Shown here one piece after another: positions 2,755 through 55,918 of a DNA stretch of 64,000 nucleotides; within the stretch, counting starts at the first letter, position 1; every line of letters starts with the position of its first letter. Both the position numbers and the translations under genes were made by a program. Under the pieces are notes generated by a model, which saw only the letters and a program-made list of their open reading frames with translations, was not told the origin of the DNA and made no database searches. The DNA lies in the NCBI GenBank assembly GCA_964393845.1, contig CAYMUX010000003.1, forward strand, positions 48 through 64,047. Reading direction: 5' to 3'. Source of the DNA: an uncultured Nitrospiraceae bacterium. Lineage in GTDB: Bacteria; Nitrospirota; Thermodesulfovibrionia; UBA6902.

Positions 2755-2765
2755 GAGGTGGCGAA

Positions 2766-5700
2766 ATGAAGATATACCGTAAATGGAATAAAAAAATGAT
2801 GACAAAATCCAGGGATGAGGATATAAAGAATAGTATGCTAGAAAATTTTGGAAAGAGTAACAGCGTTGTGAAGATGGCTTTTATGGCAGTTCTTGCTCTA
2901 ATTATGGTTTTAGGTGCAATCGGTGGGGCTGAGGCGGCGATTACAACGGTCCCGGGCAATGCATGGTCCCAAATCTATACTAATACGAATGCATTCCCCG
3001 GAACGATTGCGTACACAGTGAATGCTGGTAGTAATACCAATCGTTTGCTGGTTGTTGCTGTTTCTTCAAGTATTGACGCAGCAGGTGCCAAAACCTGCTC
3101 TGTAACGTATGGCGGCCAGTCTATGACTCAGGTGACGGCTGATGGAGGCAGTACGCAAGCTCATACGTATCTTTTTAGACTGAGTGAAGCAGGTCTGGAT
3201 GCAGCAGCTAATACTAACCTAATCTTTACGTGGGGTGGCGCAGGTTCAGCGTCTGTCAACAACGTTTTTGCTACTGTTTATGATGGGGTAGACCAGTCTG
3301 CAAATCCTATCGGGAGTTCTGTGAGTGGCACAGGCACAACATCAGTCGCCTTACCCTCGAATCTAACTATCGCAGCAGGCGAACAGGCTGTCGAAGTGGT
3401 AAATATGAGCAGGACCGGTGGAACAACATATCGTACCATTACAACGCCTGCCACAAATTGGACTTCTGTACTTGGACCTTTATCGACTAACGATGGAACT
3501 GTATATAATTCCAGCTATATTCTGACTGACGCTACTGCAGGAACAACGAATGCTAACCACACTATAAGTAGTGCTACAGCATCTATTTATGCTATGTCCG
3601 CTATGAGCATAAAGGCTTCCCAGGCTACGACAGCCGGGACGGCAACTGCTGTGGCGGCAAGCGGCACTACGATCAATGTGAGCATGCCCTACACTGATGA
3701 CGGAAACGCCAATAACACATATACAGTGGATTACAAACTAAGTTTATCCGGCACATGGACTAACTGGGTGACGAATGCAGCGCATACCACAAGCCCATAC
3801 ACAACGACAATAACCGGGCTTTCTGCCGGTACCAGTTATGATGTAAGAGTAACTTATAATGACACTGATGGTGTCAACGGCAGTGCGACGCAGACGATTA
3901 GCAATATATTTACATGGAACACCCTGACTGTCGGGGACGCAACTAACCCGGCAAACAAGACAGTATACAGGAGTGAAGCTGACAAGGCCGTATCCGCATT
4001 CACCCTATCGGTGGATGCTGGGACAGCGACAGTATCGCAGATAGTGGTAACCGGCACAGCCTCTGCCGGGTCGTCACAGACAGAGACATCAGCAGCAAAG
4101 ATATATCAGGACAACAATGGAGACCGTGAATGGGATGCAGGAGATACACTAATAGCGTCTACGACGTTTGCGACAAACACAGCTACGTTCTCCGGGCTGA
4201 GCATATCTGTGACCACAACGACAGTCAACTATATAATTGCCTATGACATATCAGCAACAGCAACCAGCGGGCGCACACTGCAGGCGCAGGTTTCAGGCAT
4301 CACGTCGACTGCCAATACAAACACTGATAATGATACTAATGATGCAACGCTGACAATCGGGACACAGACCCTGACTGCGGGCGACGGCACTGATCCGGCA
4401 GCCAAGAATGTTTACAGGACAGATACTAATAAAGCCCTTGACACATTCACGCTTTCGCTGAATGCCGGAAATACTACAGTGACGCAGATTGTCGTGACCA
4501 GCACGACATCTTTAGGTTCTGGACAGACAGAGACATCAGCAGTGAAAATCTGGCAGGACACGGGTACGACTGCTAACGAATGGGATGCAGGAGATACACT
4601 GATAGCGTCTACGACATTCGCGACAAACACAGCCACATTCTCAGGTCTGAGCATACCTGTGACAACAGCAACGGACACCTATATTGTTACAGTAGACATT
4701 TCGGCAACTGCCACAGCTACAAGAACAATTACAGCGCAGTTGTCCGGCATAAGCTCGTCTGCACAGACAAACACGGACAACGATACAGGCGGCGCAACGC
4801 TGACGATCACCAGCCAGACACTGACTGTCGGGGACGCAACCAACCCGACAAACAAGACAGTATACAGGAGTGAAGCCGACAAGGCCATATCCGCATTCAC
4901 CCTATCGGTGGATGCAGGGACAGCAACAGTATCGCAGATTGTGGTGACCGGCACAGCCTCTGCCGGGTCGTCACAGACAGAGACATCAGCAGCAAAGATA
5001 TATCAGGACAACAATGGAGACCGTGAATGGGATGCAGGAGATACACTAATAGCGTCTACGACGTTTGCGACAAACACAGCTACGTTCTCCGGGCTGAGCA
5101 TATCTGTGACCACAACGACAGTCAACTATATAATTGCCTATGACATATCAGCAACAGCAACCAGCGGGCGCACACTGCAGGCGCAGGTTTCAGGCATCAC
5201 GTCGACTGCCAATACAAACACTGATAGTGATAATAATGATGCAACGCTGACAATCGGGACACAGACACTGACTGTCGGCAATGGCACAAATCCAGCCAAT
5301 GCCAATGCACCCAGGAGCTCGACGAACAATGCACTGGATGGCTTTACACTATCTTTGAATGGCGGCTCAGGGACAGTCTCTACCCTGACTGTTACCGGAA
5401 GCGCTAACTTTACTGCAACCAATATTCCTACCAATGGCGTTAAAATATATCGTGACGCCGGTACGATAGGGACGCTGGACGGAACTGATACGTTGATCTC
5501 AAGCGGATCTACTGCTATAGCAGGCAATGCTACAACAGTAACGTTGGCCAGTGCGGAGACAGTGACAACTACATCTGCCAACTATCTCGTTACAGTTGAT
5601 ATCACTGCGGGCGCAACTCTTTCACAGACCTTTACCGGCAACATAAGTGCTGCTACAGGATCCGGCATTGGAACGCCGGTTGACAATGACACAACCTCGG

Positions 5701-8081: not shown

Positions 8082-9485
8082 ATGAACCAGGAACAAAAAA
8101 CACGTTTTGACAGACTGGTGAGTTTTCTCGGAAGCATGAGACTTTCCTTTGTCCTTATCGTCATACTCGGCCTGCTTGTTGCCCAGCGGGCTGTAATAGC
8201 GCAGAAATTCGTTTACCTTGAGGAAGTACCGTGGTTTTTACGGATTCTTGGTTCGCTCGGGATTCAATCGGCGGAGGACCTCTGGATACCCTTTCTTGCT
8301 GTGCTCGCTGTTTTTGTGCTGAACCTCGGGTTTTCAAGCATAAGGATGGCAAGGAGGATAAGAGCCAGAAAAGAGGGCATCAGGGGATATCGCACATATG
8401 AAGCATTACAGGCTTTTATAAACAATGCGGAGTTTTTCTGCCCCGAAGATTCGGAACCCCTGATTAGAAGGTTTTTCAAGAGAAAGGGCTTTTATATTCA
8501 GAGCGACAATCTCGGGAATGAGACACGCATTCATGCCGTGAAGCATAGGGCCGGTTACTGGGGGGTTTTTTCCTTTCATCTGACGTTTCTGATAATACTC
8601 ATGGGAGTTCTCCTCAGTGTCTTTACGCGATACGCCGGATATTTTGAAATTTCACCGGGAGAAAACTTTATTGAGAGGTATGAGAACTACAGGGAGGTTA
8701 CAGAAAAGCCGGCTCTGTTCAGCGGAAACAGCGGATTGAAAATAAGGCTTGAGGAAATTGACCTTTCATACTGGAGACAGGGTGAAGTAAAACAAAGGGC
8801 AAGCATTGTGAGCGTCTTTGATGCTGAAGGAAGGTTTATGGGTAAAAGACGGATAGAAGTGAACAACCCGGTAAAAATAGAGGGAATGAACATATACCAG
8901 GGCTCAAGGAACGGCTACATCACAGTTCTTGATATTACAGACTCTGCCAGCACAACAGCAGAGGGTACAGCGAGGTTTCAGCTCCCGAAAAAACCGGGTG
9001 AACAAATGAAGAGCGCCATAACACTGCCGGGTATCGGCATCTCACTTCTGTTGGAGCTCTTTACCGAAAAACTGGGCGAGATAGAGGGACTTGAACAACT
9101 GGGCGCTATGCATATGGCGACCCTGCTGAAGGTAACGAGCAAGGAGGACCTCCGCAGTAACTTCAGGGGAGTAGCATTTAAGGGCGGGAGTCTGTCTTTT
9201 GAAGGGATTACCTTGAGGTTTTTGAGCCTGAGGCCGTATACTTCTTTTGTGGTAATCAGGGACTATGGTGTTCCAGTTATTTTTTCAGGCTTTGTCGTCA
9301 TGCTTATCGGCCTTATCATCACGTTTTTCTGGGTGCCTGAAAACTATTGGGCAATAATCAGGAAAAGTGAAAGCGGAGAAGTGGTCATTATGGGAGCGAG
9401 CAGTGATAAATTCAGGGAATCCTTTAGGGAGCGCTTTCATGCTGAAATTGAGGAACTCAAGGCAGAGGTGAAGGCACATGGCTGA
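8082..9485 (+). CDS. ccsB: Cytochrome c biogenesis protein ResB/Ccs1 (system II, CcsB).
   Basis: 467 aa with an N-terminal TM segment, HxxxGYWG-like AGYWGVFSFHL segment, large soluble domain and a C-terminal TM segment; immediately upstream of ccsA. Confidence 0.8.
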   Translation: MNQEQKTRFDRLVSFLGSMRLSFVLIVILGLLVAQRAVIAQKFVYLEEVPWFLRILGSLGIQSAEDLWIPFLAVLAVFVLNLGFSSIRMARRIRARKEGIRGYRTYEALQAFINNAEFFCPEDSEPLIRRFFKRKGFYIQSDNLGNETRIHAVKHRAGYWGVFSFHLTFLIILMGVLLSVFTRYAGYFEISPGENFIERYENYREVTEKPALFSGNSGLKIRLEEIDLSYWRQGEVKQRASIVSVFDAEGRFMGKRRIEVNNPVKIEGMNIYQGSRNGYITVLDITDSASTTAEGTARFQLPKKPGEQMKSAITLPGIGISLLLELFTEKLGEIEGLEQLGAMHMATLLKVTSKEDLRSNFRGVAFKGGSLSFEGITLRFLSLRPYTSFVVIRDYGVPVIFSGFVVMLIGLIITFFWVPENYWAIIRKSESGEVVIMGASSDKFRESFRERFHAEIEELKAEVKAHG

Positions 9486-29838: not shown

Positions 29839-30120
29839 AATAACTACCCCCTTTCTACTCATCAAAAAAAAGCCTGTTTCCTTAAAAGAGAAACAGGCTT
29901 TTTTCCATAGGTAAACTCTGAGTAAGCACTGTTTCTTCGACGGCCCGGCTATCCCTTTATAGGACCCGTGGCTTTGTGCCCCCTGGTTACCCAGGGTTTA
30001 CCTTTATCGGAAACACCAATTTATGTAACCTTAATTTATGATAAATAAAGATAGGGGAGAGAAGCGGTGATTACAATCACGATATGATAAAATTCAGCCA
30101 TATCCTTTTATTTAATGAGC

Positions 30121-30523: not shown

Positions 30524-30610
30524 TTTGTATTTAACTAACAAAGCAGAAAATAATATATAAATATTATGAATAACAAAATGATAAAACAAATATCGAAAGG
30601 AGAAAATTCA

Positions 30611-31246
30611 ATGAAAACAAGAAGACTTTTATTATGTGCAATATTAGTTGTAACAGCAATGCTGATCACAACTACTATTCATGCAACAACCTTACCATGG
30701 CTGGACTTCGGGAGTAATTTGATTTGGGATTCCAATACAAATACTCTCACAAACCATGCGTCTACATATGTTAATTCCGTAACTTACAGAAATGGAGCTA
30801 CATATCCAACCATTCCTATATCCTTTCCTTTATCTGATGGTGTTATTTTTTCACCTGTTTCAATGTCAATATCGTTTGACGGGAATAACACAAACGACTT
30901 TATAAATATTGGTAGCTGGTTATCAGCAAGTTTGAATGTTACTGGTCCGACGCCTAATCCACTTACTCCTAACCAATTTATAGTTAATGTAAGCTCGGCA
31001 GGAATGAATGTCAACACCGGAGCGGGTTCTCCATGGGCTGATGAGTTCGATTCCACAATCGACTATTCGCTTTTATATCCTGCCCGACTGATTATAAACC
31101 CGTTCGGCAGCTATATCCCTCTCGGCGGTGGTCGCTATAAAGTAAATGCACCTGGAAAACTGGCTCCAGTCCCGGAACCAGGCACTTTGTTACTCCTTGG
31201 TTCAGGTTTAATGGGCGTTGCTTTCTACAGAAAACGTAAAAAATAA
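30611..31246 (+). CDS. PEP-CTERM sorting-domain secreted protein (exosortase substrate).
   Basis: Shine-Dalgarno aaggag before the ATG at 30611; signal peptide. C-terminal VPEPGTLLLLGSGLMGVAFYRKRKK is a PEP motif + TM + basic tail. Confidence 0.8.
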   Translation: MKTRRLLLCAILVVTAMLITTTIHATTLPWLDFGSNLIWDSNTNTLTNHASTYVNSVTYRNGATYPTIPISFPLSDGVIFSPVSMSISFDGNNTNDFINIGSWLSASLNVTGPTPNPLTPNQFIVNVSSAGMNVNTGAGSPWADEFDSTIDYSLLYPARLIINPFGSYIPLGGGRYKVNAPGKLAPVPEPGTLLLLGSGLMGVAFYRKRKK

Positions 31247-31275
31247 ATAGTAACTATTTAAGTTGAAAAACAAAA

Positions 31276-31310
31276 AAGCAGCTATCCTAAAGATAGCTGC
31301 TTTTTTATTG
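31276..31310. terminator. Bidirectional rho-independent terminator between the convergent PEP-CTERM and crp-like genes.
   Basis: A-run, hairpin agcagctatc-ctaa-agatagctgct, T-run. Confidence 0.65.
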
Positions 31311-31321
31311 ATAAGGGTTGT

Positions 31322-32035
31322 TTAAATAATAATTTTTACATCTTCTTGCATAAAGGTTGGGGTCAAGCATATAAACTTATTTTTAAGGATAATTAATTCC
31401 TTATTCTTTTGTAATTTGTCAATTACCCTCGTAACAGTTTCACGTGTCTGACCTGTCATATCGGATATATCCTGGTGAGTTAGTTTTATTTTTAATACTG
31501 TGCCCTCGGGAGTTTTCTCGCCATATTCATCAATCAACATGAGAAAGAGCATTTTTGTTCGCTGTGAGGCATTATTAAAATTTAACAACTGTATAGTATC
31601 CCAGCATCTGCGAAGCCTGGAACATAATATTTGGAGTAAATTTGTTGTTACCTTATTTTGAAGAAAAATAATCGAGAAGAAATCCTTCCTGGCAATAATG
31701 GCTATAAGAGAGTCTTCTGTAGCTATTACCGAAGCAGGCATTGTCTTTCCATCAATCAGGGACATTTCGCCAAAAAAACTGCCTGATTTGTGCATTGCGA
31801 GAATTATTTCTTTTCCTTCCTCTGTTGTCCGGACAACCTTTACTTTGCCTAACAAAATTATATACATGAATTCATTCGTATCTTCTTCATAAAGAATTGT
31901 CTCATTCTTCTTGAACTGCTTTAGAATCATTACATTGATGATTTGATCCATCTCTTTGTCGGTCAATGTAGAAAAGAGCTGAGTCTTTTTTAAAAAGTTA
32001 TTTTTGTATTTATCATCCATATCACTTTCCAACAA
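31322..32035 (-). CDS. Crp/Fnr-family transcriptional regulator.
   Basis: cNMP-binding beta-roll (GSFFGEMSLI) and C-terminal HTH (ISDMTGQTRETVTRVIDKL). Confidence 0.75.
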   Translation of the reverse strand: MLESDMDDKYKNNFLKKTQLFSTLTDKEMDQIINVMILKQFKKNETILYEEDTNEFMYIILLGKVKVVRTTEEGKEIILAMHKSGSFFGEMSLIDGKTMPASVIATEDSLIAIIARKDFFSIIFLQNKVTTNLLQILCSRLRRCWDTIQLLNFNNASQRTKMLFLMLIDEYGEKTPEGTVLKIKLTHQDISDMTGQTRETVTRVIDKLQKNKELIILKNKFICLTPTFMQEDVKIII

Positions 32036-32218
32036 TACCTAACTTAAGAATCCGTCACCTATTAATTCCCAACTGCCTTAACCCAATTATATTATATTAA
32101 AACATGATAACATACCTACAAATAAAATCAAGGGGCAATTGGGTTGAGGACAGTAATTTTCATCGAAACATAATTAATATATAATATTATAGAGATAACA
32201 TTAATTAATAATTAATAT

Positions 32219-34282
32219 ATGATAATTTTAATCATTTCAATTATCACAGTCACATTTGCAATTCTTACCGCCCTTGCAGCTGTCTTTAAAAGATACCAGC
32301 GTTTCGCTAATATCGTATTCTCTATTAGTTTACTTTCAACTGCATCTGTGATATTCGGCGACTCAATGAGTATATTTGAACCCGAATTCATGTTTGAATG
32401 GAAAAGAGTAGTTTTTATAAGTGAAGCTGTTATGGCTATTGCATGGCTGTCATTCAGTATCAGCTTTGCACGAACAGACTATTGGCAGGCTATAAGCAGG
32501 GTTTCAAAATTTTTCATTTCTCTCTCTCCCTTAATCGTTGTTCTCTTTCTTGTAGTACCGATGAAAGATTTTTTTTATTCACCTGAATTTGAGAGCGAGA
32601 AAATTCTTTTTCTTACTAATGCAGGGTATATTTTCAACCTTGTTCTTCTTTTCTATTCGATACTATCAATTATAAATCTTGAAGCCACCTTGAGAAGTTC
32701 TTCAGGGACTAACAGGTGGGAAATCAAATATATGATACTGGGAGCGGGTGGAATACTTTCAATAAACATTTTTTATTACAGCCACGCACTCCTTTACCGT
32801 TCAATAAACATGTACCTTGCTCCTGTCAGAACAGGAATAGTTTTAATTTCAATCCTTCTGATTGGTTTTTCCTTATTAAGACATAAAGCCATGGATATCG
32901 AATTTACTGTATCAAGAAAGGTTTTTTACCGGTCTCTTAGCCTGATTATAGTGGGGATTTATCTCCTGGGGCTTGGATTAATAGGTGAAGGAATGCGATA
33001 TCTCAGCCCGGAGCTGGGGGAAAACATTAAGATTTTTCTGGGATTTGTCGGTGCAATTTTAGTCCTAACCTTCTTCCTTTCCGAACAACTGCGGAGAAAA
33101 GTAATAGTTTTAATAAACAAGCATTTTTACAGCCAGAAATACGACTACAGAAAGCAATGGCTGCAATTTACACAACTAACATCGCTAGAGCATTCTTTTG
33201 AAGATCTCATAATCTCAATAGCAGAGGGATTTAAGGATGCGATGGGTGTCAGAGGAGTTGCTGTATGGCTAAGAGAAAAAGGTGATGGAGATTTTTTTTG
33301 CGCCAGGGCATTAGACACAGTTATGATTGAGACAAAACCTGACATAAAACTTGTGGAGTATCTTAAAGACAGGAAGTGGATTCTTGATATACGTAATTAT
33401 AACTGCATAGAAATTGTTACTATTAGCAAAGAGTTTATAAATAAAACCAGGGCATCCCTCATTGTGCCATTGCTGAATGTAGATAATCTTATCGGTTTCA
33501 TAATCCTGGAGGAAGGTCTAGCCGAAGTTTACTATAATTATGAGGATTATGATCTGCTTAAAACTCTTGCGAGACAGACGACGGTAGCAATTTTAAATGC
33601 CCGGCTGTTAGATGAATTGACGGAAGCAAAGGAAATGGAGGCTATGGGAAGGCTATCATCATTTATTATACATGACCTCAAAAATGCAACATCCATGCTG
33701 TCGCTTATAGTCCAGAATGCTGAGGAGCATATTGACAATCCTGCTTTCCAAAGGGATGCCATAAAAGCTATTTCAAACACGTCTGAAAAGATTAAAGGTA
33801 TCATCGGGAAACTTAAAAACCTTCCAACAAAGCCGAGCCTTGATCTTAAATATTCCGATCTGGGATATCATGTCAAAAAAGCAATCCACCAGTTAAACTT
33901 AAACGGGAATGGAGTGTTATCATTTAAAGAAGCTGCTCCTGCAAAAACCCGTTTTGACGCGGAAGAAATATCAAAAGTTATTATTAACCTTATTATTAAC
34001 GCCCTTGACGCAACAAACAATCAGGGGAAAATTGAAGTTGTTGTTGGTAAAGAAAGCAATATGGTATTTGTTAAAGTATCCGATAATGGCTGCGGGATGT
34101 CCGATGAATTTATCCAAAAGCGTCTTTTTAAACCCTTCCAGACCACAAAGAAAAAAGGGCTTGGAATAGGTCTTTTCCAGTGTAAGGCCATCGTCGAAGC
34201 GCATGCAGGCAAGTTGAAAGTTCTCAGCCAGGAAGGCAGGGGAACTGATTTCTTTTTGTATTTACCGTTGACTGAGTCTTAG
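32219..34282 (+). CDS. prsK: PEP-CTERM system sensor histidine kinase (PrsK-like) with a multi-TM N-terminus, GAF, HisKA and HATPase domains.
   Basis: About 8 N-terminal TM helices; H-box SFIIHDLKN; N/G boxes NLIINALDAT, DNGCGM, GLGIGL. Confidence 0.65.
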   Translation: MIILIISIITVTFAILTALAAVFKRYQRFANIVFSISLLSTASVIFGDSMSIFEPEFMFEWKRVVFISEAVMAIAWLSFSISFARTDYWQAISRVSKFFISLSPLIVVLFLVVPMKDFFYSPEFESEKILFLTNAGYIFNLVLLFYSILSIINLEATLRSSSGTNRWEIKYMILGAGGILSINIFYYSHALLYRSINMYLAPVRTGIVLISILLIGFSLLRHKAMDIEFTVSRKVFYRSLSLIIVGIYLLGLGLIGEGMRYLSPELGENIKIFLGFVGAILVLTFFLSEQLRRKVIVLINKHFYSQKYDYRKQWLQFTQLTSLEHSFEDLIISIAEGFKDAMGVRGVAVWLREKGDGDFFCARALDTVMIETKPDIKLVEYLKDRKWILDIRNYNCIEIVTISKEFINKTRASLIVPLLNVDNLIGFIILEEGLAEVYYNYEDYDLLKTLARQTTVAILNARLLDELTEAKEMEAMGRLSSFIIHDLKNATSMLSLIVQNAEEHIDNPAFQRDAIKAISNTSEKIKGIIGKLKNLPTKPSLDLKYSDLGYHVKKAIHQLNLNGNGVLSFKEAAPAKTRFDAEEISKVIINLIINALDATNNQGKIEVVVGKESNMVFVKVSDNGCGMSDEFIQKRLFKPFQTTKKKGLGIGLFQCKAIVEAHAGKLKVLSQEGRGTDFFLYLPLTES

Positions 34283-34513
34283 TTGCACCAATCTGGATTT
34301 AGCATATATACTATTAATTTCAAATTGTTTATTAAAATTCAAGTAGTATACTCTTATTACCGAATAGTAGTTATTCGACAGAATAAGATAAACAGTTTAT
34401 TTAATTTATCAGGGAACTAAGACTGGCAGGGAAATACAACCGCCTTTGAACTTAAAATTTGTATTTTTATCATAAACAATCACTTTTCATAAAAGATATA
34501 AAAGGAGGAAACT

Positions 34514-35338
34514 GTGACACACGAAGAAATGGAAAAATTGATGTCTATGAGTCTTGAGGAAAAGATTGCTCATTCCAAAAAGGTTATTAAAGAGGCAATT
34601 AATAAGTATGGTTCGGAAAATTTAGCCGTAGCCTGGACCGGGGGAAAGGACAGCACAACGATGGTGTGGCTGTTCAGAGAGGCGAGTAAAGAACTGGGAG
34701 TTAAAATGCCCAAATGCATGTTTATTGATGAAGGCTACGTGTTTGAAGAGATATGGGACATCTTCAACCAGCTTAAGAAAGAATGGACCCTTGATGCTCG
34801 TATCGCAAAGAACACCGACGTGAGTGATAAGGCGGAAAATGTAGGAGATATGGTCAAGGTCAGCAGCCTTAATGAGCGTAATAAAAAGGAAATTGCAATA
34901 CTGGAATATGAGGAAGAAGAATTTCCCTTTGAACCCGAATCGTTTGTCGGCAATCATCTGATGAAGACAGTGGCCATGAATGTATTCATGGAAGACAACA
35001 AAGTTCAGGCGCTTGCAACTGCCATCAGATGGGATGAACAGGAGGCGAGGATAGAAGAAAATTACTTCAGTCCCAGAAGAATTCCTCCTCACGAGCGGGT
35101 CCAGCCGATATTGCATTTTAAAGAGCGTGATATATGGGATTTTATATTTAAGTATGAGGTGCCTTTCTGTGTATTATATAAAGAAGGATACCGCTCACTT
35201 GGTGCAAAGGGTTCTACAGTCAAAATGTCTGACATTCCTGCATGGGAGCAAGACCTGGAAAACACATACGAAAGGGCTGGCCGCGGACAAGGCAAAGAAG
35301 AAATCATGGGTAAGCTTAGAGATCTGGGATATATGTAA
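34514..35338 (+). CDS. PAPS reductase-like / PP-loop ATP pyrophosphatase family protein.
   Basis: PP-loop AVAWTGGKDSTTMVWL. Confidence 0.55.
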   Translation: MTHEEMEKLMSMSLEEKIAHSKKVIKEAINKYGSENLAVAWTGGKDSTTMVWLFREASKELGVKMPKCMFIDEGYVFEEIWDIFNQLKKEWTLDARIAKNTDVSDKAENVGDMVKVSSLNERNKKEIAILEYEEEEFPFEPESFVGNHLMKTVAMNVFMEDNKVQALATAIRWDEQEARIEENYFSPRRIPPHERVQPILHFKERDIWDFIFKYEVPFCVLYKEGYRSLGAKGSTVKMSDIPAWEQDLENTYERAGRGQGKEEIMGKLRDLGYM

Positions 35339-36684
35339 TGTTTAATATTTTCAAGAAAAAGACTAAAGATTCAAAAGAGAAGGTCGCAGTTCTCGGCATA
35401 GACGGCGTCCCCTACAGTCTGTTAAAGCGATTCATTGGGGAAGGCTTAATGCCGAACCTCTCGACCCTTGCCGATAAAGGCTCGTTGGCGCCTATGACAG
35501 CATCTATTCCAGAAGTGTCCTCTACGTCATGGAGTACATTCATGACAGGTGTGAATCCCGGCAAGCACGGTATTTACGGATTCATGGAACTGCAGGAGGG
35601 CTCTTATAAATGGAGTTTCCCGAATTCAAATGACATAAAGAGTGAGACCTTATGGGAGATAGCAGGAAAAAACAACAGAAAAAGCATTGTGCTTAATGTA
35701 CCGTCAACGTATCCTGCAAAAACATTAAACGGTATTCTAACAGCCGGATTTGTCGCCCTTGACTTAAAGAAGGCTACTTACCCTGAAAGCGCTTATGAAT
35801 ATCTGAAGAGTATTGGTTATAAAATGGATGTAGATACGCGTAAGGCACAGGAATCAACAGCAGCACTGGCAGCAGAGATTGCCTCTGCATTTCGAATTAG
35901 AAAGAAGGCCATGCTTCATTTTCTGGATAATAACGAATGGGACCTCTTCATAGGAGTAATAACCGAGACTGACCGGCTGCATCACTATCTCTGGGCAGCC
36001 CTCCAGGATAACAAACATCCGCAGCACAATTTTTTTCTCGATTTTTACAGGGAACTGGATTCATTTATCGGTGAGATGTATGACAGGGTTGGTGACAGCG
36101 TCCCCTTTATAATATTGTCTGATCATGGTTTTACAACAATAAAACAAGAAGTATATCTCAATTCCTGGCTCAGAGAAAAAGGATATTTAAAATTCAATAA
36201 GGAACATCCTGACTCGATGGAAGATATACACAGTGAGAGCAAGGTCTTTGCGCTTGACCCGTCACGATTATATATTCACACTAAAAACAGATACTCTCGG
36301 GGAAATGTTGATGCCAATGAATATGAAAGTCTGCGGCATAAAATAAAAGAAGAGCTGCTATCGTTAGTTTTAGACGGCGAAAAAGTTATTAAAACAGTTA
36401 TGTTCAGGGAAGATATATATAGCGGCAATTTGTATGATAATGCCCCTGATCTTGTTGCACTCCCCTATGAAGGTTATGATTTAAAAGGATCCATCAACAA
36501 ATCTCAAATATCAGGAAAAGGTTTCCTTACAGGGGGGCACACCAGAGAAAATGCAGTGTTTTATATCAACAGAGAGATATCTGCCAGGGACATTAATATA
36601 GTAGATGTTGGCCCAACAATAATTTCATTGCTGGGTATTGAAGGAAACAATTTTGACGGAAAATGCTTACTAAACGATAGATAA
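35338..36684 (+). CDS. Alkaline phosphatase superfamily protein (type I phosphodiesterase/nucleotide pyrophosphatase-like).
   Basis: LGIDGVPYSL, TASIPEVSSTSWSTFMTG (metal-binding Ser/Thr), DRLHHYLW, ILSDHGF. Confidence 0.6.
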   Translation: MFNIFKKKTKDSKEKVAVLGIDGVPYSLLKRFIGEGLMPNLSTLADKGSLAPMTASIPEVSSTSWSTFMTGVNPGKHGIYGFMELQEGSYKWSFPNSNDIKSETLWEIAGKNNRKSIVLNVPSTYPAKTLNGILTAGFVALDLKKATYPESAYEYLKSIGYKMDVDTRKAQESTAALAAEIASAFRIRKKAMLHFLDNNEWDLFIGVITETDRLHHYLWAALQDNKHPQHNFFLDFYRELDSFIGEMYDRVGDSVPFIILSDHGFTTIKQEVYLNSWLREKGYLKFNKEHPDSMEDIHSESKVFALDPSRLYIHTKNRYSRGNVDANEYESLRHKIKEELLSLVLDGEKVIKTVMFREDIYSGNLYDNAPDLVALPYEGYDLKGSINKSQISGKGFLTGGHTRENAVFYINREISARDINIVDVGPTIISLLGIEGNNFDGKCLLNDR

Positions 36685-36695
36685 AATACGTCATT

Positions 36696-38084
36696 ATGAA
36701 ACAAATACTGGTAGTTGAAGACGATCCTGATATCCAAAATCAGATGAAATGGGGCCTTTCGGAGGAATACACTGTTCTTCAGGCATTAAACAGGGCTGAA
36801 GCCGTCTCTCTATTTAACAAAAATCAACCCTTGGTAGTAACTCTCGATCTTGGACTTCCTCCAGATCGTAATGATGCAACCGAAGGTTTATCATGTCTTC
36901 GCGAAATACTGAAAAAAGCTCCCGACACGAAAGTAATTATAGTTACCGGGAATAACGACAGAGAAAATGCCCTTAAGGCAATTCAGATGGGCGCATATGA
37001 TTATTATCTCAAACCTGTCAATATGAATGAATTAAAGGTAATACTGCAAAGGGCATTTCACCTATCAAAAATAGAGTCTGAAAACCTCAAATTACATAAG
37101 ATGCTGGATAAAGAAATCGGTTATGCCGGCATGATTGGACAAAGCCCTGAGATGCAAAAGGTATTTGAGACTATCAGTAAAGTCGCTACTACTGATGTGG
37201 CAGTTCTGGTAACAGGAGAAAGTGGAACAGGTAAAGAGCTTGTTGCCCGGGCAATTCATGACAAGAGTTCGAGGAATAAAGGCCCTTTCATCCCTATTAA
37301 CTGCGGGGCAATACCGGAGACTCTGCTTGAATCTGAGCTCTTTGGATATGAAAAAGGCGCTTTTACAAATGCATACGCCCAGCAAAAAGGCAAATTTGAA
37401 TATGCAGACAAAGGAACGCTTTTTCTCGATGAAATAGGAGAAATGTCGCCGAATCTGCAGGCAAAGCTCTTGAGATTTTTACAGGAAAAAAAGATTCAAC
37501 GCGTGGGCGGCAGAAAAGACATTGAGATAGATACCAGAGTAATTGCCGCTACGAATATTGACTTGAATATAGCCATGAAGGATCACAAATTCAGAGATGA
37601 TCTATTCTTCAGGATCAGTGTCATTACAATTAATGTCCCTCCACTCCGGGATCGGGGATTGGATATCAAATTGCTGGCAAATATTTTTCTTGAGCGATAT
37701 AAGGTCATATTTAACAAGAAAATTAAAGGGATCAGCCAATCCGCTATGTGTGAAATTGAAAAATACCCGTGGCCCGGAAATGTCAGAGAACTTGAAAACA
37801 AGCTACAGAAAGCGGTGATTACAACCGAATCCAGCATTATTGAACCTCATAATCTGGGATTAGGCGCACAGTCAAAAGAAATATTAAGCGGGGTAACTTC
37901 TGAAAAACGGGATAAGGGAGTTACACTCAAAGAAGCGCGTAAAAGACTTGAAATGGACCTCATCTCAAATGTAGTTGAAAGACACAGCGGCAATATCAAA
38001 AGGGCGTCAGAGGAGTTAGGGATCAGCAGACCGACACTATATGATTTGATTGAGAAATATAAGCTGCCTATTAAAGAGGATTAA
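36696..38084 (+). CDS. prsR: Sigma-54-dependent response regulator (PrsR-like; receiver + AAA+ + Fis-type HTH).
   Basis: Receiver Asp ([10 protein letters not shown]); Walker A GESGTGKE; GAFT motif EKGAFTNA; C-terminal [27 protein letters not shown]. Confidence 0.8.
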
Positions 38085-38529: not shown

Positions 38530-39309
38530 TCAAACATTCAACACCTTCATCCCCTTGCCGATGGAAATCGCATTCGTCATGGCAGTATATGTAAAACCCT
38601 TCGCCTTGATAAACGCCTCTTTTACATCGTATCCGAGAGCAAGACAGGCTGTAATAGCAGCTGAAAATACACACCCCGTACCGTGAAATTCTCCTTCAAG
38701 CCTCTCATTCTCCAGAGATAAAAATTCCTTTCCGTCAAAAAGCAGGTCCATTGCCTTATCTTTCAAATGCCCGCCTGTAATTATTACTGCATCAGGACCA
38801 AACCCTCTTAATCTCACAGCTGCTTCTTTCATATCATCCTCAGCTTCTATTTCCTTCCCTGTGAAAACGCCCGCTTCATAAATATTTGGAGTAATGACTC
38901 GTGCCAGAGGGAACAAATCATTTTTTATAATATCCAGTCCTTTTTCTTCAATAAGCCTGACCCCCGTTGATGATACTGTTACGGGGTCAATGACGAAATT
39001 ATGGAGTGAATATTGCCGTACCTTGCCGGCTACTGCACTAACAGTATCCGTAGTATAAAGCATCCCTGTCTTAACGGCGTCAGGCAGGACATCCTGAAGA
39101 AGTACATCTAATTGCTCGGATATCAGATCAATGGACAGTTCATGGACACAATGTACTCCTTTGGTACTTTGTGCAGTCAGCACCGTGGGAATGCTCAGAC
39201 CGTAAACTCCCATGGCCTGGAATGTCCTTATATCCGCCTGTAATCCGGCGCCTCCTGAAGGGTCAGACCCTGCTATTGTGAGGGCAGTTTTATGTTTTGA
39301 GTTGATCAT
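38530..39309 (-). CDS. thiD: Hydroxymethylpyrimidine/phosphomethylpyrimidine kinase.
   Basis: [22 protein letters not shown]; PfkB-type C-terminal [10 protein letters not shown]. Confidence 0.8.
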
Positions 39310-39431
39310 ACTTTAATCAACAACTTCAGGGCGCGGCGAAGCCGTGCACCTACTTCCGAGCTTACGTGCTTATGGATCATGGAAAGACTATATCAACTTG
39401 TATATAATATTTCAAGAATAAAGGAGCTATT

Positions 39432-39938
39432 ATGCAGGAAGAACTTCTTGAAGTCGTTAATGAAAAGGGTGAAACAGTCAGGACCCTTCCGAGATCTCAA
39501 ATCCACGGTGACCCCTCATTGATCCACAGGGTCGTTCACGTCCTTGTATTTAATGGAAAAGGTGAGCTTCTACTTCAGAAACGCTCAATGAATAAAGATG
39601 TGGCAGCTGGGAAATGGGATACATCTGTCGGCGGACACGTCAATTCGGGTGAAACACTTGAGGAAGCAGTCAGGAGGGAAACAGAAGAAGAACTAGGCAT
39701 CACAGCTTGTTCGACCGGGTTTCTGTATACTTACATTCATTCAAACGAATATGAAACAGAACTCGTATATACCTATACATGTACATATGACGGAGAAATA
39801 AAATTTCAGCAGGACGAAATTGACGAGGTACGGTCGTGGGGCCTGGATGAAATCAAGTTTAATACCGGAAAAGGCGTCTTAAGTGACAACTTTGAGCATG
39901 AGATCGAAACATACTTGAAATTTAAAGAGGGTCAATAG
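39432..39938 (+). CDS. NUDIX hydrolase.
   Basis: Nudix box GGHVNSGETLEEAVRRETEEELGI. Confidence 0.75.
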   Translation: MQEELLEVVNEKGETVRTLPRSQIHGDPSLIHRVVHVLVFNGKGELLLQKRSMNKDVAAGKWDTSVGGHVNSGETLEEAVRRETEEELGITACSTGFLYTYIHSNEYETELVYTYTCTYDGEIKFQQDEIDEVRSWGLDEIKFNTGKGVLSDNFEHEIETYLKFKEGQ

Positions 39939-39982
39939 ACCTTATAATTTATCCTGGCTGAATTCGTCTCCCCATTTAACAT

Positions 39983-40279
39983 TTACCGATCTTCCGGCAA
40001 TTTGTAATCCATCCCTGCAAATTGAATATTAGACTGGTCCTCGCATCGCGGGGGCGACACTGCATGCACTCCGCTGCATTTGGGACATTTCCCTACAAAT
40101 GTTTTTAATGTAAAAATCTCACCACAGCCCCGGCACCTGGTTTCCAGCCCGCCGCCAGGAAGAGGCTGATCTTTTATCGCTCCGCCATGTGCATTATAAA
40201 CAAATTCTACAAGATCCCTTCCTTCAGAAAAAGGCCCTGCTCCCCTGTCCCCGCAGCTACCACATTGTCCCATGTTCAC
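39983..40279 (-). CDS. Small zinc-ribbon protein.
   Basis: CGSCG ... CRGCGEIF ... CPKCSG cysteine pairs. Confidence 0.45.
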   Translation of the reverse strand: MNMGQCGSCGDRGAGPFSEGRDLVEFVYNAHGGAIKDQPLPGGGLETRCRGCGEIFTLKTFVGKCPKCSGVHAVSPPRCEDQSNIQFAGMDYKLPEDR

Positions 40280-40797
40280 ACCTCCTGTTTTTTGTCTGCA
40301 AATATTTGATCAGGTCAATAGCAAAATTATTTTTATAGTTTACAGAATCAGCAATCTAAATAATATGAGCTAAATCATGAAGTTTATATATTCTATTATT
40401 CCAGCACAGGCAAGAGGTTTTTTCTAAGCAGTAACGGCATGCCCTTTTAAATGGATTGATATCAGGATATGAAGTTTTAAAATTAAATGCCGATAAGTAT
40501 ATCAGGAGGCCAAAGTGGTTTATCCATTAAAGGAAATACCATGACAGCAAAAGAAACAATAGAAATCATCAGTAACTCTTCACTGTGGAAAACACTATCC
40601 ATAAAGGAAAAAGCGGAAGCCGCTGCCTATGCCATGAAAATCGCCGGGATCAAACATGAGGATGAAGATGTGAGCGATCTCATAGGCGAAGTTTATGCCG
40701 GCTGAGTTAATTCGACACTTCCAGACAGTTAAAGAAAAAAGATGGTGAGACAACTCCCACCATCCAGTATTAAATATCTATGTTCAGCTATAGCGGC

Positions 40798-41222
40798 TTA
40801 TCCGCATGAAGAGCCGCAGCTTGGTCCGCATGACGGAGGATTGGGATTGTTGATTATAAATCCCTGTTTCTCCCCGTCATCGACAAAATCGATAGTCATG
40901 CCGTCGAGTTTTTCAGAAGCATCTTTGTCGATAAAAAACCTGGTGCCGTTTTGTTCTATGACTTTATCCCCGTCAACGGGGCTTTCTACAATATCTATTC
41001 CGTATGAGGGCCCGCAGCAGCTGCTGCCGGCTGTGTAAAATCTGAGTCCCCACCTGGTCTTTCCTTCTGCATATATAGTAACGGCATTAAATTAAAATAC
41101 ATCTTAAGCATTTAATTAGCTGTAATATAAAGGAAATATCATATTTTAACTTAAGTTATTTATTGCCGTTACTATAGTATCTCCTTGGTTTTCTCTGCTG
41201 CTGTGTCTGATATGGTTACCAT
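40798..41222 (-). pseudogene. HesB/IscA-like Fe-S cluster carrier gene interrupted by a ~100-bp insertion.
   Basis: Shine-Dalgarno aaggagg + ATG (41222) encode MVTISDTAAEKTKEIL, then immediate stops inside the insert. Downstream of the insert the same frame continues YAEGKTRWGLRFYTAGSSCCGPSYGID...DDGEKQGFIINNPNPPSCGPSCGSSCG*. Removing 101 nt restores a single 107-aa ORF. Confidence 0.7.
41074..41176. mobile_element. MITE-like non-autonomous insertion (~100 bp, AT-rich) with 13-15-bp terminal inverted repeats and a TA target-site duplication, inserted in the HesB-like gene.
   Basis: Left end tatagtaacggcatt (41074-41088) versus right end attgccgttactata (41162-41176), a 13/15 reverse-complement match; flanking TA on both sides; no coding capacity. 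Confidence 0.65.
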
Positions 41223-41407
41223 CAATAAAATCCTCCTTAAATTGTTGCCGGAAACTGATGCGGCTGTTCTTTTTAGGGTAAAAGAAAAGTATGGAAAAAA
41301 GCAAACATAAATCTTTTTTTAGTTTTTTTTGATGTATACTTTATATAAATACGTACGAACAAATCCGGCACGATAATCTGTTTTTGTTATGAAAGAGAAG
41401 GAGTAAA

Positions 41408-42265
41408 ATGTCCCCTTTAAGATTTAACATATTTCTATGTGCTTTATTAATTACCCTGATTCCATCCTTTTCACAAATATCAAAGGCTGGTGAACCGTTA
41501 ATTTTTGCAGTCCATCCATACCTGCCTGCAACTGAGATTGTTGAGAGGTTTACTCCGCTTGTAAAATACCTGAGTAAAGAATTAGGTGAGACGGTTATAA
41601 TTGACGTCTCGCTTGATTATCAAAATCATATAGCAAGAACCGGTAAGGACAATGTGGATATCGCCTATATGGGACCGGCAAGTTACGTAAAGATGGTTGA
41701 TACGTATGGCAGGAAACCGCTTCTGGCACGTCAGGAAATTAACGGCAAACCCACATTCCACGGGGTAATAATCGTCAAAAAGGACAGCCCGTTGCGATCT
41801 CTCACGGATCTGGCAGGAAAGCGCTTTGCTTTCGGCGACCCGGAGTCTACCATGAGTCATCTGGTGCCCAGATACATGTTATGGAAGGAAGGAGTGACCA
41901 TTGACAACCTGGGCGGCTATGCATTCCTGGCAAATCATCATAATGTGGCGCTCGGAGTGCTTGCCGGGGATTTTGATGCCGGGGCAGTCAAGGAAGAGGT
42001 GTTTGATGAATACGAAAAACGCGGGTTAAGAGACCTTGCAAGGACGCCGGAGATATCGGACCATGTAATTATTGCGACTAACAGACTTTCCCCTGAGAAA
42101 ATACAAAAACTTCGTGATGCCCTGAATTCTCTCAGCGGAAAAGAAGATGGCCGGAATATTCTGAATTCCATCAAACCCTCCATCAGCCTGGTCCCCGCGA
42201 AAGATGAAGATTACGATAACCTGCGTGAAATACTTAAGGCGCTTGCTAAACTGGGAATTTACTAA
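41408..42265 (+). CDS. Periplasmic substrate-binding protein of the phosphonate/phosphate (PhnD-like) family, probably sensor-associated.
   Basis: Signal peptide; PhnD-like fold motifs (FAVHPYLP, RFAFGDPESTMSHLVPR); stop overlaps the start of the downstream hybrid kinase. Confidence 0.6.
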   Translation: MSPLRFNIFLCALLITLIPSFSQISKAGEPLIFAVHPYLPATEIVERFTPLVKYLSKELGETVIIDVSLDYQNHIARTGKDNVDIAYMGPASYVKMVDTYGRKPLLARQEINGKPTFHGVIIVKKDSPLRSLTDLAGKRFAFGDPESTMSHLVPRYMLWKEGVTIDNLGGYAFLANHHNVALGVLAGDFDAGAVKEEVFDEYEKRGLRDLARTPEISDHVIIATNRLSPEKIQKLRDALNSLSGKEDGRNILNSIKPSISLVPAKDEDYDNLREILKALAKLGIY

Positions 42266-44769
42266 TGACTGAAACCGCAAGATTTAAATATCAGCGTGCT
42301 TTTTTGGCATTTATTGCTATACTGCTTGTCTTTCTCATTGTTACTGATATGGTTATCGTGTCGAACCAGCGGAAACAGCTAATGAGTGACGCGGAGAACC
42401 ACATGCGGTCTGAAGTGGATTTAGTAGAGACGTTTATACGGGAACCGCTTCTGAAACATGATTATGCAAAGGTAGAACAGTTTCTCACACACTGGGCTGA
42501 GGAGCATAATGAAGTCATTGAGGTCAGGGCGGTGATGCCCAATAATTTTGTACTTGCAGAATACAATCGCAAGACACCATCACGTTATGTCTATGTTTTA
42601 CAGAAACAGGTGCGGTACGGGGACAAAGATCTCATCAGCTTGAAAGTAGTCAAGGATTTTTCAAGCGTTGAGACTATCATCGGCAGACTCCGGCTGCAGC
42701 TCATAGCGTTTTCTCTCTTTCTCACGGCGCTGCTGGGAATTCTCCTTTGGCGTACCGTCAGGACAATGGCGCTGAAGCCACTGGAGATGGAAATCAATCT
42801 GCGCACTCAGGTCGAAGAAAAGCTTCAAAAGGCCAAGGACCAGCTGGAAGCGAGGGTACAGGAACGCACTGCGGAACTGAGGGAAAGTGAACTGCGCCTG
42901 AAAACTATAATAGAGACAGAGCCGGAATGCGTTAAGATTCTTGCGTCTGACGGCGCCCTGCTGACAATGAACCCTGCAGGTCTTGCAATGCTCGAGGCTG
43001 ACTCAATTGAAGAAGTTATAGGCGGCAGCATATATCCTTTTATTGATCCAAAATACAGGGACGCTTTCAGGAAACTTAACGAAGCTGTTATACAGGGGGA
43101 AAAGGGCAGTATGGAGTTTGAATTGACAGGATTGAAAGGAACGCGGCGGTGGCTTGATACACATGCCGTGCCTCTCCGTAATGACAGGAATGAGATTGTG
43201 GGAATACTGAGTGTTACGCGCGATATAACCGAACGCAAAAAATCCGAAACGGAATTGCGGTTTTCAGAGGAGAAATTCTCAAAAGCATTTCGTTCAAGTC
43301 CGACTTTTATAACAATAAGCACTCTTCAGGAGGGGAGGTTTATTGAAGTAAACGATGCATTTCTTAAGGCAAGCGGCTACAGCAAAGAGGAAATGCTCGG
43401 CATATCATCATTAGAACTTGGTATTTGGGCAGACGCTTCTGACCGCAGGGAAATGGTCAGCCTGCTATTAGAACATGGTGTTGTCTATAACAAGGAAAGT
43501 AAATTCCGTATGAAGACCGGTGAAATAATAAATATCCTCTACTCTGCGGAACTTATTGACATAGGCAATGAGCAGTGCATCATCGCGGTAATCCTGGATA
43601 TCACAGAGAGGAAGAAACTTGAAAACCAGCTCCTGCAGGCGCAGAAAATGGAAGCTGTGGGCCAGCTTGCAGGGGGCATTGCCCATGACTTTAATAACAT
43701 CATCACAGCTATTTTCAGTTACGGGTACCTCCTGCAAAGGAAGTTAAGATCAGACGATCCCGCGGCTGATTATATCAATAAAATACTTTCCTTATCTGAC
43801 AGGGCCGCCCAGATAACGAGGGGGCTGCTTACCTTCAGCAGAAAACAGCACTTTGAGGTCGTGCCTGTAAACCTCAACGAAATTATTGGTAATATTAAAA
43901 AGCTTCTGGTAAATTTCATCGCGGAAGACATTGAACTCACCACAAAACTGTTGGATAAGGATATCATAATAATTGCGGACAGGAACCAGATAGAACAGGT
44001 GGTCCTGAATCTCGCAACGAACGCAAGGGACGCCATGCCGAACGGGGGGAAACTGATTATAGAAACTGACCTTGTGGAAATAAACGAAAGCTTTATCAAA
44101 ACTCATGGATTCGGCAGGCTTGGCAAGTATGCCCTTCTAACGGTTACTGATACAGGGATAGGCATGGACGCGGAGACAAGACAGAGGATATTTGAGCCTT
44201 TTTTTACTACAAAGGAAGTCGGCAAGGGGACGGGACTCGGCCTTTCCGTGGTTTATGGCATTATCAAGCAGCACAGCGGCTTCATAAATTTATACAGCGA
44301 GCCGGGCAGGGGGTCCACCTTCAGGATATATTTACCTGAAATTAAAGCGACTGTTGAGAGGAAAAAAGAAGAGGAGCCTCTGCGGCAGATAGGGAAATCA
44401 GCTACAATACTTGTGGCGGAGGACGAGCCGGCAGTCAGGGGGCCGGTCAAAGAGATCCTTGAGGAATACGGATATAAAGTCATAGAAGCGGCAGATGGAC
44501 AGGATGCAGTGGAGAAATTCAAACAATATAAAGATGAAATACAGCTTCTTCTCCTTGATGTAGTAATGCCGAAAATGAACGGGAAGGAAGCATATGAAGA
44601 AATAAAGCGGATGTCCCCGGAGATAAAGGTCATATTTACCAGCGGGTACACTGCAGATGTTATACTTAAGAAAAAAGTCCTTGAAGAAGACGTAATTTTC
44701 ATTTCAAAACCGATAATACCGGACAAGTTATTATCAAGAATAAGGGAGGTCATTGAAGGTGAACGCTAA
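42265..44769 (+). CDS. Hybrid sensor histidine kinase (TM/HAMP-like, coiled coil, 2 PAS, HisKA, HATPase, C-terminal receiver).
   Basis: H-box [10 protein letters not shown]; N box [10 protein letters not shown]; DTGIGM; GLGLSVV; receiver [12 protein letters not shown]. Confidence 0.8.
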
Positions 44770-54442: not shown

Positions 54443-55918
54443 ATGAAAATTGCTTTTATTATTCCCAAGAACAGTTCTGATACTGGAAAAAGCTTTTACG
54501 ATTATAAATTCTTCTCTGAGTTTTTACTCTCAAAAAAATATTTTTCCTACCTCCTGGCGATTCCCACGTTAGTCTCTCTTACTCCGCCGGAACATGAGAT
54601 AAGGGTATTTGATGAGAACATTGAAGATATCGACTATAACTGGGGTGCGGATATAGCCGGCATCAGCGTAAGGACCATGTTTGCGAAAAGGGCCTACAAG
54701 ATATCGGAATCGTTCCGGCAAAGAGGCGTAAAAACCGTTTTGGGAGGCATACATCCTTCAATGTGCAGTGAAGAGGCCCTTCAGCACTGTGATTCCATAG
54801 TAGTCGGAGAAGCTGAGGAAGTATGGCAAAATCTCTTACTTGATGCAGGTAATGGCGGTCTTAAAAAGATTTATAAAGCGGAGAAGAAGGCTGATTTAAC
54901 GGCTTTCCCCATTGCAGGAAGGGCATCTCTATCGAAAGACAGATACTTTTCAGATATTGTTCAAACAACAAAAGGCTGTCCATTTCATTGTGAATTTTGT
55001 TCCGTTCATGCATTTGACGGACAGAAGATCAGGAACAGGACAATTGAACATGTATTGAATGAAATAAGAGACGTTGTGGGCACAAGCGCCACATACAAGA
55101 AGAGGTCCATATTCTTTGCTGACGACAATATAATAGCAAACAGGAAATTTGCCAGAGAGTTATTCCTGGCATTAAAGGATTATAACCTCAACTGGTCATG
55201 TCAGGCGTCAATTAATATATCAAAGGATGATGAACTTCTCAGGTTAATGAAAGACAGCGGGTGCGGAGCTATTTTAATAGGGCTTGAGTCAATATCCAGG
55301 GAAAATCTGTCCAGCATGGACAAGGGGATCAATCTTAAACATGACTATCATGATGCAATTAAAAAAATCCAGTCGCACGGTATAATGGTGCACGGATCAT
55401 TTATTCTGGGATATGATTTTGACACGCAGTCTTCATTTGATGAACTGACAGCGTTTATCAAAGATACTCACCTGCTTATGCCTCTAATCAACATCCTGAC
55501 ACCGTTCCCGGGTACGAAGCTTTTTAAACGTCTCGAAGAAGAGGGCCGGATACTCCATAAAGACTGGGACAAATACGACGCAAAAACTGTTGTTTTTTTC
55601 CCTCATCTTATGACCCCTGAAGAACTGCTGGAAGGGCACAAGCGGGTGATCAGGGAAATTTATTCGTTTGATTCCATTTATAAGAAACTTACATATTATT
55701 GGGACACCGACTTCTGGAAGCATTCAAACGAGGTTGATCCCATTAAATTAAAATACCGGCTGCTGTTTGCTTTCAGGCTTTGTACTCTGCTTTTTTCAAG
55801 CAACTTCAAAAGATCAAAGTTTATTCTCAGGATACTGCCGAAAATATTCGGCAAACGCATAAGAATTTCGACTATACTTTCACTAATGGCTTACAACGAT
55901 TATGCCTATTCATCTTGA
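54443..55918 (+). CDS. B12-binding domain radical SAM protein (second copy in the window).
   Basis: N-terminal B12-binding-like region; cluster motif CPFHCEFCS. Confidence 0.75.
   Translation: MKIAFIIPKNSSDTGKSFYDYKFFSEFLLSKKYFSYLLAIPTLVSLTPPEHEIRVFDENIEDIDYNWGADIAGISVRTMFAKRAYKISESFRQRGVKTVLGGIHPSMCSEEALQHCDSIVVGEAEEVWQNLLLDAGNGGLKKIYKAEKKADLTAFPIAGRASLSKDRYFSDIVQTTKGCPFHCEFCSVHAFDGQKIRNRTIEHVLNEIRDVVGTSATYKKRSIFFADDNIIANRKFARELFLALKDYNLNWSCQASINISKDDELLRLMKDSGCGAILIGLESISRENLSSMDKGINLKHDYHDAIKKIQSHGIMVHGSFILGYDFDTQSSFDELTAFIKDTHLLMPLINILTPFPGTKLFKRLEEEGRILHKDWDKYDAKTVVFFPHLMTPEELLEGHKRVIREIYSFDSIYKKLTYYWDTDFWKHSNEVDPIKLKYRLLFAFRLCTLLFSSNFKRSKFILRILPKIFGKRIRISTILSLMAYNDYAYSS

Follow-up and report, generated by a model that had tools for sequence, protein, structure and literature searches.

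The locus lies on the minus strand of the window, by which we mean the whole stretch of 64,000 nucleotides that was analysed, and it consists of a hesB/iscA-type gene (41222..40798) that is broken after its codon 16. The 5' fragment (41175..41222, minus strand) holds codons 1-16, MVTISDTAAEKTKEIL: it begins with an ATG at 41222, has the ribosome binding sequence AAGGAGG just 5' of it, and is matched by residues 1-16 of the protein in tblastn at 41222..41175. The 3' fragment (40798..41073, minus strand) holds codons 17-107 and the stop, is read in a frame different from that of the start codon, runs from YAEGKTRWGLRFYTAGSSCCGPSYG to NPNPPSCGPSCGSSCG with the stop at 40798, and is matched by residues 16-107 at 41076..40801. 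Between the two fragments stands an insert, inside which an in-frame TAG follows directly after codon 16 of the interrupted allele, and within the 3' fragment there is no in-frame ATG, GTG or TTG ahead of Met74. The first-pass annotation of this DNA had described an AT-rich element of about 100 bp with a TA duplication, placed 16 codons into a HesB-like ORF, and all of these features were found at the positions that it had given.

When 101 nt are deleted in silico, the two fragments join into a restored HesB of 107 aa, residue for residue the protein that had been predicted to result from a precise excision. The restored protein scores 52 bits against PF01521 (cutoff 26.3) and 72.5 bits against TIGR00049, 'iron-sulfur cluster assembly accessory protein' (cutoff 58.8), the latter match spanning positions 1-103 of the 106 in the model; with the equivalog models for IscA, SufA and ErpA it stays below cutoff. 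These full-length matches hold for the restored sequence only, as the window allele has no intact hesB ORF. In an alignment of 20 HesB sequences Cys35/36 and Cys98 are present throughout, Cys102 and Cys106 nearly throughout. The restored protein resembles the A-type Fe-S carriers (IscA/SufA/ErpA/HesB) in its end-to-end coverage by the model, in a cysteine near residue 35 and in its C-terminal cysteines, but it differs from them in the arrangement of these residues: the C-terminal spacing is C-x3-C-x3-C (SCGPSCGSSCG) and a CC pair stands at positions 35-36, both kept in the Nitrospirota orthologs, whereas the canonical motif is C-G-C. By analogy with the known carriers these cysteines may ligate the cluster. 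A second A-type carrier was not found within the 64-kb window. Downstream of the gene, 33 nt 3' of the hesB stop, there is an intrinsic-terminator-like hairpin (40740..40765, minus strand) whose 11-bp stem precedes a T run, which suggests that hesB is monocistronic.

The insert spans 41074-41176 when both TA dinucleotides are counted, that is 103 nt with 21% GC, and the MITE proper occupies 41076..41174 (99 nt, AT-rich and non-coding). Its size is below the ~300 bp that bounds bacterial MITEs, and it has no coding capacity, as stop codons occur in 6/6 frames. Its ends are inverted repeats with 19-nt arms, 41074-41092 (TATAGTAACGGCATTAAAT) and 41158-41176 (ATTTATTGCCGTTACTATA), that match at 18/19 positions. 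The presence of terminal inverted repeats (TIRs) had thus been seen correctly by the first-pass annotation, but its count of 13/15 matching positions had not: the 15-mers that it quoted match at 14/15, and the repeat extends to the 19 nt given above. Without the TA dinucleotides, the repeat on the plus strand at 41076..41092, TAGTAACGGCATTAAAT, resembles the end of insertion sequences (IS) that lies downstream of the transposase gene, as aligned with the ends of the metagenome loci L072, L089 and L094, and the repeat on the minus strand at 41158..41174, TAGTAACGGCAATAAAT, belongs to an end that is 24/24 identical to many IS ends upstream of the transposase gene. The target-site duplication, established by comparison of the filled site with empty sites, is a TA at 41175..41176 on the hesB 5' side, where it overlaps codon 16, and a TA at 41074..41075 on the hesB 3' side. 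Folded as single-stranded DNA, the insert gives a hairpin with -16.1 kcal/mol (z = -4.9). A promoter scan found no outward-reading sigma-70-like promoter in the insert, and the insert region has no Rfam match.

Within the window alone, a chance test of the two ends was weakly significant: 2 matches were found against 0.26 expected, and 1/100 shuffles reached 2. Chance is excluded by the occurrence of the same 19-mer at 84 metagenome loci, most of which adjoin IS630 transposase genes or lie in short TIR pairs. No second copy of the MITE was found in the 64-kb window. A 16-nt match to the insert at 55741-55756 lies within a radical-SAM-like ORF and was set aside as a chance AT-rich match.

The state of the locus before the insertion can be read from its relatives. 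A protein search with the restored HesB gave 111 homologs, typically of 106-110 aa, and almost all of those that bear an organism name come from Nitrospirae/Nitrospirota MAGs. The first-pass annotation had proposed a comparison with uninterrupted orthologs, and these are present at both the protein and the DNA level: all 19 aligned HesB orthologs (19/19) are colinear with the restored protein and gap-free at the junction, the best ones sharing ...KEILYAEGK..., and three loci provide empty sites in the DNA. A naturally split gene was therefore rejected, since the HesB orthologs are unsplit. The gene is uninterrupted in L004, which is the locus of the homolog P0001, and also in L101, L102 and L103, the last two being Logan contigs. 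L101 is a contig of GCA_016208905.1, a 'Nitrospirae bacterium' MAG, and encodes P0235, a member of the 90% cluster of P0001 that is identical to the restored HesB at 105/107 positions. The filled site of the window reads ...GATAC-TA-[99 nt]-TA-TATGCAG..., and the empty sites read ...AAATAC-TA-TATGCAG... in L101 and L102 and ATTC-TA-TATGCAG in L004: in each of these three loci the gap opposite the insert is exactly 101 nt and a single TA is present. Therefore, the event was the insertion of a 99-nt element with one TA duplicated. Excision of 98 nt with a longer duplication (CTATA or TATA) was also considered and rejected, because the protein would then contain an extra residue, which is missing from every ortholog.

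The synteny between the window and L101 extends over ~18 kb, with a nucleotide identity of 77-95% per block and ~87% overall, and the common gene order is NUDIX - hesB - RR/HD - cinA - ligA - TPR - htpG. A block at 41392-44652 (plus strand), with a gene for a PhnD-like periplasmic binding protein and a gene for an 834-aa PAS histidine kinase, stands in the window between hesB and the response-regulator/HD gene and is absent from L101, where hesB abuts the regulator gene. The region 30566-38084 encodes a sigma-54 activator, a 7TM histidine kinase and, next to them, a protein whose C-terminus is of the PEP-CTERM type (…VPEPGTLLLLGSGL…RKRKK); L101 has the same arrangement. The hesB upstream region (41223..41300, minus strand), which contains the ribosome binding site and a presumed promoter, is nearly identical in L004, L101 and L102. 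Over ~75 nt 5' of hesB (window 41223-41300, minus strand; L004 4810-4889; L101 about 9085-9162) the sequence is almost invariant, whereas the coding regions differ by 7-12%; the stretch may thus contain a conserved regulatory site or leader.

The origin of the insert was traced by a single metagenome scan, in which the 19-nt end was used as query against JGI/ENA metagenome contigs and from which the 84 loci were obtained. At least 11 of them are complete insertion sequences of 1109-1114 bp with both ends, for example L030 851-1964 and L072 5-1113. The transposase of the complete elements has an N-terminal helix-turn-helix region (HTH_29, HTH_33), its DDE_3 domain (PF13358, 95.7 bits) is encoded in a different frame, and its two parts match NF033545, 'IS630 family transposase', with 88.7 bits (positions 2-135) and 127 bits (139-294). 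The HTH and DDE frames join at an A8/A9 run in both subgroups examined, and this run is probably the site of a -1 slippage or frameshift that joins the two frames. A homologous transposase, with 52-100% identity, adjoins the end in 36/84 loci. As far as we have checked, the loci with these termini form an apparently unnamed IS630 clade with the end TAGTAACGGCAWTAAAT.

The relation of the MITE to this clade is visible at both of its ends. One end is identical to the upstream IS end over 24/24 nt, after which a partial similarity continues to ~35 nt, and the other end is similar, to ~40 nt, to the distinct downstream end of an AT-rich 1109-bp subgroup. Because the MITE matches two different IS ends, it is an internal-deletion derivative. 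The proposal of the first-pass annotation that the element is a Tc1/IS630-derived MITE is thereby borne out, as the 11 complete elements share its termini and encode the NF033545/DDE_3 transposase. Further TIR-bearing copies and a parent IS630 element, for which the same annotation had proposed to search the genome, were found in metagenomes. Among them the 103-nt MITE (both TAs counted) occurs six more times, in six different metagenomes. These copies align gap-free, with 81-85% identity to the window copy and 88-99% to each other; they are flanked by TA and by unrelated sequences, and all appear to be intergenic, none of them apparently breaking an ORF. These six copies probably come from other hosts. 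The GC content of their contigs is 33-38%, compared to 43% of the window, which is evidence that the MITE family has moved between hosts. The MITEs that share these ends fall into length classes of 69, 103, 148-150, 166 and 184-188 nt, so that this IS630 clade has given rise to at least 5 derived MITE length classes across groundwater, sediment and soil metagenomes.

In the near surroundings of hesB the family is represented by the one insert. A tblastn search found no transposase homolog within the 64-kb window, and nhmmer with a profile of the 7 copies, run against the window and all loci, detected neither additional nor degenerate copies in the window, L004 or L101-L103. A scan of GTDB species representatives with the pattern TAGTAACGGCA-N62-92-TGCCGTTACTA gave 3 matches, which have no internal similarity and were rejected as chance; this paired pattern was too strict, as the other 103-nt copies have TACCGTTACTA at one end. 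A scan of viral contigs with the 19-mer gave 2 matches in coding regions of AT-rich phages, which have no second end and were also rejected as chance.

The age of the insertion can be estimated from the state of the gene that it interrupts. Restored hesB and its L101 counterpart differ in 19 codons, of which 17 differ synonymously and 2 non-synonymously, and the restored gene contains no further frameshift or stop. The prevalence of synonymous changes indicates that purifying selection acted on hesB over practically the whole divergence, and the undecayed body of the gene suggests that the insertion is evolutionarily recent. The first-pass annotation had called the gene 'freshly inactivated', and this description fits both the 17 to 2 ratio and the lack of other lesions, although we infer the inactivation itself from the sequence.

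Taken together, we consider it very likely that the interruption is a MITE, a 99-nt derivative of an IS630-family insertion sequence of ~1.1 kb, which inserted recently into a TA of hesB and produced a null allele. The 99-nt element would be non-autonomous, having retained just the two ends (~35-40 nt each) of an AT-rich IS630-family IS. An IS630-family transposase, composed of HTH and DDE_3 parts from two frames, would act in trans on the 17-19-nt TIRs; for the genome of the window such mobilisation in trans is presumed by analogy. The element would be cut from its donor site and pasted into the first TA of CTATAT, at hesB codons 16-17, with duplication of the TA. Steps of this kind have been reconstituted in vitro for ISY100: its transposase binds the TIRs via the N-terminal HTH, double-strand breaks excise the element, cutting exactly at its 3' ends and 2 nt inward from its 5' ends, and the cut-and-paste insertion goes into TA, which is duplicated (PMC2170065). 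In the interrupted hesB, translation would end at 16 residues, at the TAG after codon 16, and the next in-frame start, Met74, lies past the conserved Cys35/Cys36, so that the A-type carrier would not be made. The early TAG and the lack of a start before Met74 point to a null allele, and hesB has thus very probably lost its function. A polar effect on the neighbouring genes is not expected, since hesB has its own putative terminator.

One could argue that the insert is an artefact of assembly or consensus, mis-joined into hesB via a repeat or present only in a minority while most cells carry the intact gene. The source contig is indeed metagenome-assembled, and assemblies are often broken or mis-joined at IS and MITE ends: for many of the 84 loci, ~105-126 nt separate the end of the locus from an end of the contig. 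A consensus contig could also conceal a subpopulation with intact hesB. The Logan contig L013 (run SRR13723394) bears on both sides of this question. It begins 25 nt inside the insert, as a contig broken at a repeat might do, but it is 100% identical to the window from there through the hesB 5' part and the next gene, and it thereby reproduces the same right junction from an independent assembler. The break of L013 inside the insert was considered as a sign of repetitiveness and rejected, since L014, a contig from the same run that covers window 39293-40954, ends at 40954 in unique sequence: low coverage suffices for such contig breaks and explains them better than a repeat. Moreover, the insert is joined exactly on both sides, the TA/TA duplication is perfect and the frame is restored to the nucleotide, unlike what a chimeric join would give. 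No record of the exact intact allele was found: an exact look-up in a collection of 15 billion proteins returned neither the restored HesB of 107 aa nor the C-terminal ORF of 33 aa. Exact-protein look-ups of the histidine kinase, the 72-aa ORF and P0112 gave no record either. We regard an artefact as very unlikely.

Even less credence is given to the notion that the insertion is a reversible or tolerated state, in which hesB would be rescued either by a precise loss of the 101 nt, as a population on/off switch, or by removal or bypass at the level of RNA or translation. Such a rescue, if true, would account for the undecayed hesB. Its stricter form, that the present gene is functional despite the insert because the 101 nt are lost or skipped through reversible excision, splicing or ribosomal bypass between the repeated ATA/CTA codons on either side of the insert, we hold to be extremely improbable. 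It can draw on the intact gene body, on the strong hairpin in the insert and on a superficial likeness to take-off and landing sites, as the TA duplication together with the TIR creates direct repeats ACTATA...ACTATA at the junctions and a stop stands right after codon 16. However, the known case of bypass, T4 gene 60, spans 50 nt, and a bypass of 101 nt would be twice as long; ribosomal bypass was considered and rejected. There is no Rfam match in the region, and the other copies of the transposon family are intergenic and have no dedicated tie to hesB. Excision by a transposase would, judging from ISY100, leave a TA-NN-TA footprint that adds 4 nt and shifts the frame instead of restoring it (PMC2170065). 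Finally, the missing decay is explained equally well by a recent insertion. In a milder version, this uncultured Nitrospirota lineage would harbour a currently active IS630/MITE system, and the sample would contain filled alleles side by side with empty ones.

The reading of the insert as some other small repeat (REP/BIME-like or Correia-like), moved by an unrelated enzyme and sharing no more than a palindromic end, deserves hardly any weight: Correia elements do begin with TATAG... and duplicate TA, but the ends of the insert are identical to those of complete elements with an IS630 transposase and the similarity runs 35-40 nt into both distinct ends, and the TA target duplication is as in IS630 (PMC2170065). 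An intron or intein was rejected, as the insert has stops in every frame, is too small and has no Rfam match.

Several other features of the window are worth recording. At 37-7994 (plus strand) two ORFs of 905 and 1742 aa contain long internal repeats that are almost identical, together with many haem-binding CxxCH motifs, and the GC content of this region is ~50% compared to 43% of the whole window; the two ORFs look like giant multihaem cytochromes or surface proteins. A c-di-GMP-I-GGC riboswitch (RF03167) at 29935-30011 (minus strand) reaches 64.8 bits (gathering score 59) and lies directly 5' of a repeat-rich, secreted-looking protein of 792 aa (27487-29865, minus strand). At 20658-21630 (minus strand) an 85-aa RelE/ParE-like ORF adjoins an apparent C-terminal fragment of a C5 DNA methyltransferase (…NQIGNAIPP…), as recognised by eye from the translations; these may be the remains of a mobile or defence island.

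The insertion of a MITE into hesB is a clean but ordinary case of a well-known event and changes no concept. Its value is of a practical kind. The locus should be annotated as a hesB/iscA pseudogene interrupted by a MITE, rather than as a pair of short hypothetical ORFs or a gene that is 'absent', and the pseudogene call affects reconstructions of Fe-S assembly for this Nitrospirota MAG. In addition, the pair of filled and empty sites is a textbook case that fixes the TA duplication.

The closest known systems include the IS630 elements and ISY100 of the Tc1-mariner-IS630 superfamily. The transposase of the clade described here is split over two frames at the A8/A9 run, whereas the ISY100 transposase is a single ORF, and the window holds a non-coding derivative only. 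The likeness lies in the parent elements of 1109-1114 bp, which have TA-flanked TIRs, HTH and DDE_3 parts and an NF033545 match, and in the insertion into TA with a 2-bp duplication, which was shown in vitro for ISY100 (PMC2170065). The Correia/NEMIS elements of Neisseria measure 100-155 bp, have TIRs, TA termini and a TA duplication, form a long hairpin in transcripts and are found within and between genes (PMC2229807). The window MITE shares with them the size class of ~100 bp, the TIRs, the TA termini and the TA duplication. However, no autonomous partner has been established for the Correia elements, whereas an IS630-family partner was identified for the window MITE; moreover, the 107-bp Correia form is open-framed and often fused in frame with genes, in contrast to the window MITE, which has stops in every frame and truncates hesB. 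The classical bacterial precedent is RUP, a 107-bp MITE of Streptococcus pneumoniae that is attributed to IS630-Spn1 and occurs in ~108 copies per genome (PMC2229807). RUP and the window MITE are both ~100 nt long, have TIRs in common with an IS630-family element, a TA target and TA termini, and stops in six frames; both are presumed to be mobilised in trans and can inactivate the genes that they enter. They differ in the TIR, which has 9 contiguous bp in RUP and 17-19 nt here, and in the host, which is a member of the Firmicutes in the case of RUP and belongs to Nitrospirota and environmental metagenomes in the present case; the likeness between the two is one of features.
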